Part shown: positions 13,986 to 14,023 of the stretch, in pieces | How positions within the stretch are numbered: the first letter of the stretch is position 1 | Layout: each line of letters begins with the position of its first letter | DNA from: a virus | Lineage: Duplodnaviria > Heunggongvirae > Uroviricota > Caudoviricetes | IMG/VR virus record: IMGVR_UViG_2737471853_000007 | Location: 1 to 17,015 of that record | Direction: 5' to 3' (one strand) | Length of the DNA: 17,015 nt | Translations under genes and position numbers: made by a program | Notes under the pieces: model-generated | What the model was told of the DNA's origin: nothing | Seen by the model: the letters and a program-made list of their open reading frames with translations, nothing else | Database searches by the model: none

Positions 13986-14023
13986 CCTTTTTATCCTTTT
14001 TATTTTTATTTATTGAGATCACT

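Follow-up and report, generated by a model that had tools for sequence, protein, structure and literature searches.

How does a lambda-type terminase find its packaging site when the start codon of the small-subunit gene lies almost against that of a divergent gene? This question is raised by the phage DNA analysed here, a stretch of 17,015 nt referred to as the window. The features bearing on it are as follows.

11642-13531, minus strand: terL, lambda gpA-type large terminase subunit, 629 aa, assigned by Pfam and by alignment with lambda gpA
13437-13985, minus strand: terS, Nu1-like small terminase subunit, 182 aa, ATG start, assigned by phrog_57
13986-14023, no strand: divergent junction, A/T-rich, with two translation-initiation regions only
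14024-14587, plus strand: orf187, 187 aa, ATG start, facultative cargo gene between the putative cos and terS
14588-14679, minus strand: conserved 92-bp non-coding element, putative compact cos, between orf187 and the DUF3800 gene
14767-15921, plus strand: DUF3800-family gene, 384 aa from the first ATG, assigned by Pfam PF12686 and phrog_12991

The divergent starts of terS (13985, minus strand) and orf187 (14024, plus strand) are 38 bp apart, with CCTTTTTATCCTTTTTATTTTTATTTATTGAGATCACT between them. This distance, reported in an earlier note on the same DNA, was confirmed by the ORF list, the sequence and the homologue alignments. Within the gap, the terS Shine-Dalgarno sequence is found in minus sense as AAGGA (13994-13998), 8 nt from the ATG, and the orf187 ATG is preceded by a weak GAGA. 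Among relatives in which both starts could be assigned, the gap of orf187-type carriers measures 35-82 bp. The tight divergent terS-orf187 junction is a family trait. Near-identical copies have gaps of 38, 44 or 47 bp (the window and loci L001 and L058), and these length differences are attributed to copy-number changes of short A-rich repeats (ATAAAA, GGATAAAAA) by slippage. The longer gaps of 63-82 bp (L006 7449-7525, L019, L027, L038, L048 and L066, between terS and orf186-190) hold a conserved palindrome-like TTATCGGCA-N5-7-GGATAAATACTTTAACA, which is missing from the window-type gaps of 35-47 bp.

An artefact, with one start misassigned or orf187 not being a gene, so that the interval would be ordinary upstream space, is very hard to sustain: ORF calling is mechanical and a 93-aa minus-strand ORF (13969-14250) overlaps the junction region, but this antisense ORF is found in near-identical window copies only, whereas the homologues of both terS and orf187 align from residue 1-3, orf187 is kept at 26-65% identity with a confident predicted fold, and a good AAGGA precedes terS.

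The earlier note argued that the gap leaves no room for a lambda-type cos, and this holds. The 38 bp are far too short for a cos of lambda or N15 layout. The figure given there for lambda, about 190 bp upstream of Nu1, is correct, as Nu1 starts at nt 191; it is true of lambda but sets no lower limit. The N15 terS starts at nt 89 with 88 bp before it, and 76 nt separate the bottom-strand nick from its ATG. The most compact members of the present family have a GCG block about 70 nt before the terS ATG.

The terminase assignment rests on protein comparisons. The terS product matches phrog_57 ("terminase small subunit") at E 5e-22 and, in a pairwise alignment that begins at residue 1, is 23% identical to lambda Nu1 (E 8e-6). 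Its score against Pfam Phage_Nu1 (PF07471) is 20.1 bits, under the 30-bit gathering cut-off; despite this sub-threshold score, the phrog_57 match and the pairwise alignment indicate that terS is related to Nu1. The protein also has a precomputed PF07278 (DUF1441) assignment. For terL, both GpA_ATPase (PF05876; 5e-49, 167.5 bits) and GpA_nuclease (PF20454; 2e-42, 145.7 bits) score above threshold, and the alignment with lambda gpA covers the full length at 21% identity. Compared with both lambda and N15, the terminase proteins are 21-25% identical. The terS and terL frames overlap by 95 nt (13437-13531), given the first ATG of terL; the overlap in lambda and N15 is 26-29 nt. An unusual split is seen in a distant group (L157, 1-8401; also L101 and L110), where terS lies at 653-1222 and terL starts from about 7468, with about 6 kb between them filled by several ORFs on both strands.

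A head and tail module of lambda style, also on the minus strand, accompanies terS and terL in the window, and its assigned genes precede them in coordinate order.

768-2978, minus strand: tape measure gene of the head and tail module
3715-4179, minus strand: major-tail paralogue, phrog_158, 154 aa, one of a tandem pair
4236-7076, minus strand: major-tail paralogue, phrog_158, 946 aa, with a fibre-like C-terminal extension, the other of the pair
7817-9643, minus strand: prohead protease (Peptidase_S78) and major capsid (Phage_capsid) fused as two domains of a single 608-aa ORF
9591-11099, minus strand: lambda-family portal gene

The window has a G+C content of about 39%, ranging over 33-47% in the profiled part (11000-17015), and the identified hosts are all Enterobacteriaceae. 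The region of two further genes, orf169 and lipo102 (16000-16800), is richer, at 43-47% G+C.

Relatives of the window are encoded by 62 viral contigs and six Enterobacteriaceae genomes, the latter from Buttiauxella, Scandinavium, Pluralibacter, Enterobacter and Pseudescherichia. Six window proteins were mapped onto the relative loci, and their gene content was compared. The stretch between orf169/lipo102 (16034-16826) and terS is a variable slot among these relatives. A close cultured phage was not found, the best cultured TerL match being 35% identical, and cultured phages searched by megablast and blastn with the region and with the element gave nothing informative. Prophages of this type are often decayed, their terL interrupted by IS3 or IS5 (L192, L194, L195; L202). 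One of these, L202, lies in E. coli AREA_C483 (NZ_CP123310.1, 2145232-2187989), between mipA and yeaG and beside a large serine recombinase. The type is rare in E. coli, with matches in 2 of 5426 complete genomes. This low-GC Enterobacteriaceae prophage group is widespread but uncharacterised.

orf187 and the DUF3800 gene are separated by 179 bp, which include a non-coding element (14588-14679) with a GC content of 48%, compared with 20% in the flank. Read from its left end in terS sense, it is built as follows.

14670-14679, minus strand: block 1, the left block, AAGGTACTCC in terS sense
14653-14669, minus strand: variable 17-nt spacer
14634-14652, minus strand: block 2, CGCGAGTTTTCGGCACCGG in terS sense
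14614-14629, minus strand: block 3, TTTAAGTTATGTGTGA in terS sense
14588-14601, minus strand: block 4, TTCCCGCACCGCAC in terS sense

A profile was built from 41 distinct copies of the element and searched against the related prophage loci with 150 bp or more ahead of terS, 60 in number. Each of the 60 has a single copy, in the orientation of terS. Its distance from the terS ATG falls into three classes.

36 loci: element 9-84 bp upstream of the terS ATG, nothing between
23 loci: element about 600-640 bp upstream, one divergent ORF of 186-208 aa between
1 locus: element 1 kb upstream, a 311-aa ORF between

The spacing within the element is rigid. In all 41 distinct copies the distance from GCG to the end of TGTGA is 37 nt, and a further 15 nt lead to CCCG; from GGT to GCG it is 25-27 nt. 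The sequence between the blocks varies freely. One pair of direct repeats is present in the element, CGGTGCGGGAAGCT and CGGTGCCGAAAACT, 44 bp apart.

The element is kept while its neighbours change, and the cargo flanking it differs on both sides among loci. It is 100% identical in L066, which has an orf187 of 34% identity and no DUF3800 gene, and 79-88% identical in L002, L004, L042 and L043, where orf187 is absent and the element lies about 60 bp before the terS ATG. Four distant loci (L101, L110, L157 and L182; TerS 31-34% and TerL 39% identical) keep the first three blocks upstream of terS, and L157 shows the same 25-nt and 37-nt spacings as the window family. Since the core is kept at 31-34% TerS identity, this non-coding DNA is better conserved than the terminase proteins. 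In KA2-1 and DCP80 the element was not matched in the stretches checked. In L004 (about 7470-7525), and also in L002, L042 and L043, a hairpin CCTCCTGA-N8-TCAGGAGG followed by T6 stands directly before the terS ATG, with the terS Shine-Dalgarno sequence as its 3' arm. This hairpin of orf187-less members could act as a terminator or a translational gate.

The two plus-strand genes around the element were then compared. An orf187-type gene is present in 23 of the 60 loci; these homologues are full length, occupy the same position and share 26-65% identity. This conservation marks orf187 as a real gene. In nearly all carriers its stop codon falls at the end of the element profile or about 1 nt from it. 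The AlphaFold model of orf187 has a mean pLDDT of 90.5, and the protein is predicted to have a restriction-endonuclease (PD-(D/E)xK) fold. The residues E46, D81 and E98-x-K100 are invariant, and a Cys cluster is found at the C-terminus. Pfam and PHROG searches gave no sequence-family match for orf187, and PADLOC assigned neither cargo protein to a defence system. The exact orf187 protein is indexed in 491 blocks of the protein collection. Compared with CinB, R.SwaI, BglI and AF1548, which have the restriction-endonuclease fold, orf187 stands outside the sequence families, has no adjacent methyltransferase and carries an extra Cys-rich C-terminal segment. It is not needed for packaging, as relatives with 87-90% identical TerL lack it. 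Neither a promoter nor a terminator of orf187 was found in the sequence scans.

The DUF3800 gene scores 38 bits against Pfam PF12686 (cut-off 21 bits) and 8.5e-119 against phrog_12991. Its start may be the TTG at 14800, giving 373 aa, as annotated elsewhere. It has its own candidate signals.

14729-14758, plus strand: promoter-like site TTTACA-18-TATATT before the DUF3800 gene, with TG before the second hexamer and 10 of 12 consensus matches
15927-15966, no strand: long hairpin between the convergent DUF3800 and lipo102 genes, terminator-like on both strands, with poor T-runs

The promoter-like region is about 79% conserved in L004 and L043, which have the DUF3800 gene and lack orf187. Overall, the DUF3800 gene occurs in a handful of loci, with or without orf187, and the two genes occur together only in near-identical copies of the window; elsewhere one or neither is present. 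By this distribution the "cassette" falls into two independent cargo genes, and the putative cos lies between them. The single cassette described by the earlier note must be revised in this respect; a candidate packaging site does lie inside it, while its two genes occur independently.

Why a nuclease-like gene should sit at this position is a matter for speculation. One doubtful suggestion is that orf187 cuts the cos-terS junctions of related phages or satellites lacking it, as a homing or exclusion nuclease. Such a role would explain why diverse orf187 genes always lie at exactly the same position in about 40% of the family. The homing idea is weakened by the finding that orf187 presence follows terS lineages and is not patchy within them.

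From these data we infer, with moderate confidence, that the element at 14588-14679 is a compact cos site recognised by the lambda-type terminase. Several lines of sequence evidence point to this. The characterised lambda-type terminases, including that of N15, cut at a cos that lies upstream of the small-subunit gene and is co-oriented with it (PMC4669245), and the window encodes a terminase of this type. The element is the only non-coding element universally conserved next to terS in the family, present once and in terS orientation in all 60 loci while the flanking cargo differs. Its block spacing is rigid, as a protein-DNA assembly requires, and its core blocks and spacings survive at 31-34% TerS identity. 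The geometry of the minimal loci resembles that of the compact N15 cos (about 70 nt versus 76 nt), cargo placed between cos and the first packaging gene is already documented in P2-like phages, and the RNA and sigma-70 promoter readings fared poorly, as described below. The earlier proposal that the packaging site must lie inside or beyond the cassette is supported to this extent, the conserved element being inside it.

The proposed mechanism is as follows. TerS (Nu1-like) and TerL (gpA-type) would recognise the 92-bp element on the minus strand. The staggered nicks would fall in the left block AGGTACTCC and the variable spacer, about 17 nt long, and the conserved right flank CGCGAGTTTTCGGCACCG would come next after the nick segment. 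The blocks TTATGTGTGA and CCCGCACCG, at fixed distances, may anchor TerS. In the presumed ancestral layout the element abuts terS. In the window and about 40% of its relatives, a single reverse-oriented cargo gene lies exactly between the element and the terS ribosome-binding site, and the 38-bp interval is a bare junction with translation-initiation regions only.

Several results bear on the cos reading from the other side. No part of the element varies more than the stretch where the cohesive ends would lie, and in some members this stretch is A/T-rich, which counts against a cos. Exact-pattern scans of viral and metagenome contigs, filtered with the profile, gained a few extra copies of the element, and no viral or metagenomic contig carrying the element ends inside it; the starts of truncated viral contigs do not coincide with it either. 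A cultured relative with mapped termini was not found. Comparison with lambda itself gave a partial resemblance. The most conserved 11-mer of the family, GCGAGTTTTCG (at most 1 mismatch), matches the plus strand of lambda at 14-24, just rightward of the 12-nt cohesive end. The same 11-mer has a perfect chance match in lambda at 42639, and the comparison was made after the resemblance had been noticed, so it is a lead only. Neither the whole-element profile (nhmmer at the lambda cos junction) nor the weight matrices of the four blocks single out lambda cos.

The alternatives were weighed against the same data. One is that the element serves the head-gene operon, as its promoter or as the binding region of an activator (for example a phage-encoded late activator), with cos elsewhere. 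The element always precedes the first gene of the structural operon and shares its orientation, and in minimal loci 9-84 bp separate its end from the ATG, a usual distance for a promoter. Rigid spacing also fits an activator together with polymerase, and a regulator-dependent promoter unlike sigma-70 promoters would likewise be conserved before the first gene of the operon. However, no -35/-10 pair is found at a shared position, and the window copy has no promoter-like match of any kind. A conserved sigma-70 promoter in the element was rejected on this count, as a -35/-10 pair stands at a common column in at most 3 of the 41 copies. Insertion of orf187 would give a leader of more than 600 nt, antisense to a gene, in about 40% of members; conservation across 31-34% TerS identity is unusual for promoters; and same-strand genes with a conserved motif of their own lie upstream. 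We regard this alternative as unlikely.

The packaging site may instead lie elsewhere, either inside terS/terL (pac-like or remote) or in the conserved intergenic DNA before orf169 (16827-17015), and the element would then act in cis in some other way, for example by anchoring the recombination that exchanges cargo. N15 has an accessory TerS site inside its terS (PMC4669245). Mosaic breakpoints coincide with the element edges, and 16827-17015 is 84-99% conserved in five relatives and carries repeated TGATCA motifs. This stretch, however, is conserved in a subset of loci only, while the element is universal. To our knowledge, the gpA/Nu1-type terminases characterised so far all cut at a cos located ahead of the small-subunit gene. 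On inspection, neither XerCD (dif) sites nor integron recombination sites were recognised in the element. The chance of such an arrangement appears small, about the same as that of the promoter or activator reading.

A structured RNA (a small RNA, a leader or a DUF3800-associated RNA motif) is very improbable: a set of eleven structured RNA motifs is associated with DUF3800 genes (PMC5737381), and the element stands directly ahead of a gene of this family, but it is present in all loci while the DUF3800 gene is found in a handful, no Rfam match, DUF3800-associated motifs included, was obtained at E up to 1 in 13300-17015, RNAalifold gave no consensus structure for the 41 copies on either strand, and single-sequence folding energies were no better than those of shuffles (z -0.5 and -1.3).

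With the element read as a putative cos, the next question is how terS is transcribed. Sequence scans revealed no conserved sigma-70 promoter in the 38-bp gap or in the element. Promoter-like matches in 13300-17015 number 14, compared with 13.8 in shuffles, and near the gap there is a single match on the minus strand (14030 to 14002), from which transcription would begin inside the terS Shine-Dalgarno region. Further upstream of terS lie two genes on its strand and a candidate regulatory motif.

16034-16342, minus strand: lipo102, lipoprotein-like ORF of 102 aa upstream of the cargo, conserved in many relatives
16317-16826, minus strand: orf169, upstream of the cargo, conserved in many relatives
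16858-16873, minus strand: GATC-containing motif TTAAAAATGATCAATT, upstream of orf169, in a TGATCA-like repeat cluster (16840-16910)

Of 55 loci, 33 have the motif AAAATGATCAAT (at most 1 mismatch) ahead of terS. It precedes the start of the orf169 homologue by 44-67 bp in the loci that were checked, although the proteins are only 25-45% identical. The TGATCA/GATC cluster may serve as an operator, or as a Dam-sensitive promoter, for the operon that runs into terS, and orf169 and lipo102 probably belong to this transcription unit. A k-mer conservation scan of the upstream region was dropped as a test, as it was swamped by A/T-rich low-complexity matches.

The lack of a conserved promoter in the gap and element, together with a conserved motif beyond the cassette, fits late transcription entering from upstream. 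Transcription would enter ahead of terS, probably before orf169, as the gap appears to lack a promoter for terS. In circular or concatemeric DNA, the late transcript would pass the weak hairpin, cross the DUF3800 gene antisense, then cos, then orf187 antisense, and arrive at terS. Thus terS is probably reached by upstream read-through, antisense to both cargo genes. The earlier note had placed the promoter of the structural operon inside or beyond the cassette, and the candidate motif upstream of orf169 agrees with this. It had also offered a choice between insertion of the cassette into the cos-proximal region and antisense late transcription through it; the two are not exclusive, and both probably apply. 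An inverse coupling of cargo expression to the lytic cycle, which it also raised, is speculative.

If the element is cos, orf187 and the DUF3800 gene would lie at opposite ends of the packaged chromosome and be neighbours only in the circular or integrated form. The element would define the packaging signal of a widespread, uncharacterised Enterobacteriaceae prophage group, the cis-acting site would be self-contained within about 92 bp, and a lambda-type terminase would tolerate a whole gene between its recognition site and terS. It could then help to predict virion ends, to design cos-plasmid transduction vectors and to recognise satellites carrying a copy of the site.

The element can be compared with known cos sites. 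It resembles the N15 "simple" cos and the lambda cosQ-cosN-I2-cosB arrangement in being rigid, about 90-100 bp long and upstream of Nu1/gpA-type genes (PMC4669245, PMC4856287). In lambda, the distance from cosN to cosB is critical, and I2, the conserved segment that joins the two, is essential (PMC4856287). As a cos, the element would be closer in size to the N15 site than to that of lambda. The element's short right-flank string resembles lambda bp 13-25 (CGCGGGTTTTCGC vs CGCGAGTTTTCGG). Several differences are clear. Lambda has the 12-nt cohesive end GGGCGGCGACCT, and no such sequence is found near terS in the window family, where matches with 3 mismatches are distant and at chance level (5 observed vs 3.05 expected). 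The complex cosB of lambda has three R sites with the IHF site I1 between R3 and R2, whereas the IHF consensus WATCAANNNNTTR (at most 1 mismatch) was found neither at a conserved column of the element nor in 14540-14800 of the window. The geometry would be compatible with that of the N15 simple cos: the critical R3 of N15 lies about 36-47 nt from the bottom-strand nick, and a conserved block of the element lies 22-37 nt from GCG, the nick position in the element being putative. In contrast to N15 and lambda, the counterpart of the nick segment is variable in the element, and the window has a complete gene between the element and terS.

Genes placed near cos have precedents. In P2-like phages, a hot spot for cargo lies between cos and the first packaging gene, as with ctx of phiCTX and ORF1-4 of phiRSY1 (PMC5694545). 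The window shares with this hot spot facultative foreign genes that disturb neither neighbour and whose presence varies among close relatives. It differs in having a lambda-type terminase and a siphovirus tail, and in holding a single small nuclease-fold gene that is always reverse-oriented, with its stop codon abutting the element. In lambda, bor is placed on the opposite strand between Rz and cos, and the late transcript crosses bor antisense and then cos before it reaches Nu1. Like the cargo of the window, bor is an opposite-strand accessory gene between the late genes and cos. Lambda accessory genes are all on the cosQ side, with nothing between cosB and Nu1, unlike the window. By analogy, the layout of the window matches in concept what lambda (bor) and the P2-like phages (cargo between cos and gpQ) already show. 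An optional nuclease-like gene between the candidate cos and terS is ordinary phage mosaicism. What is new here is a candidate cos family for uncharacterised prophages and, in a Nu1/gpA system, a gene that would separate the recognition site from terS.
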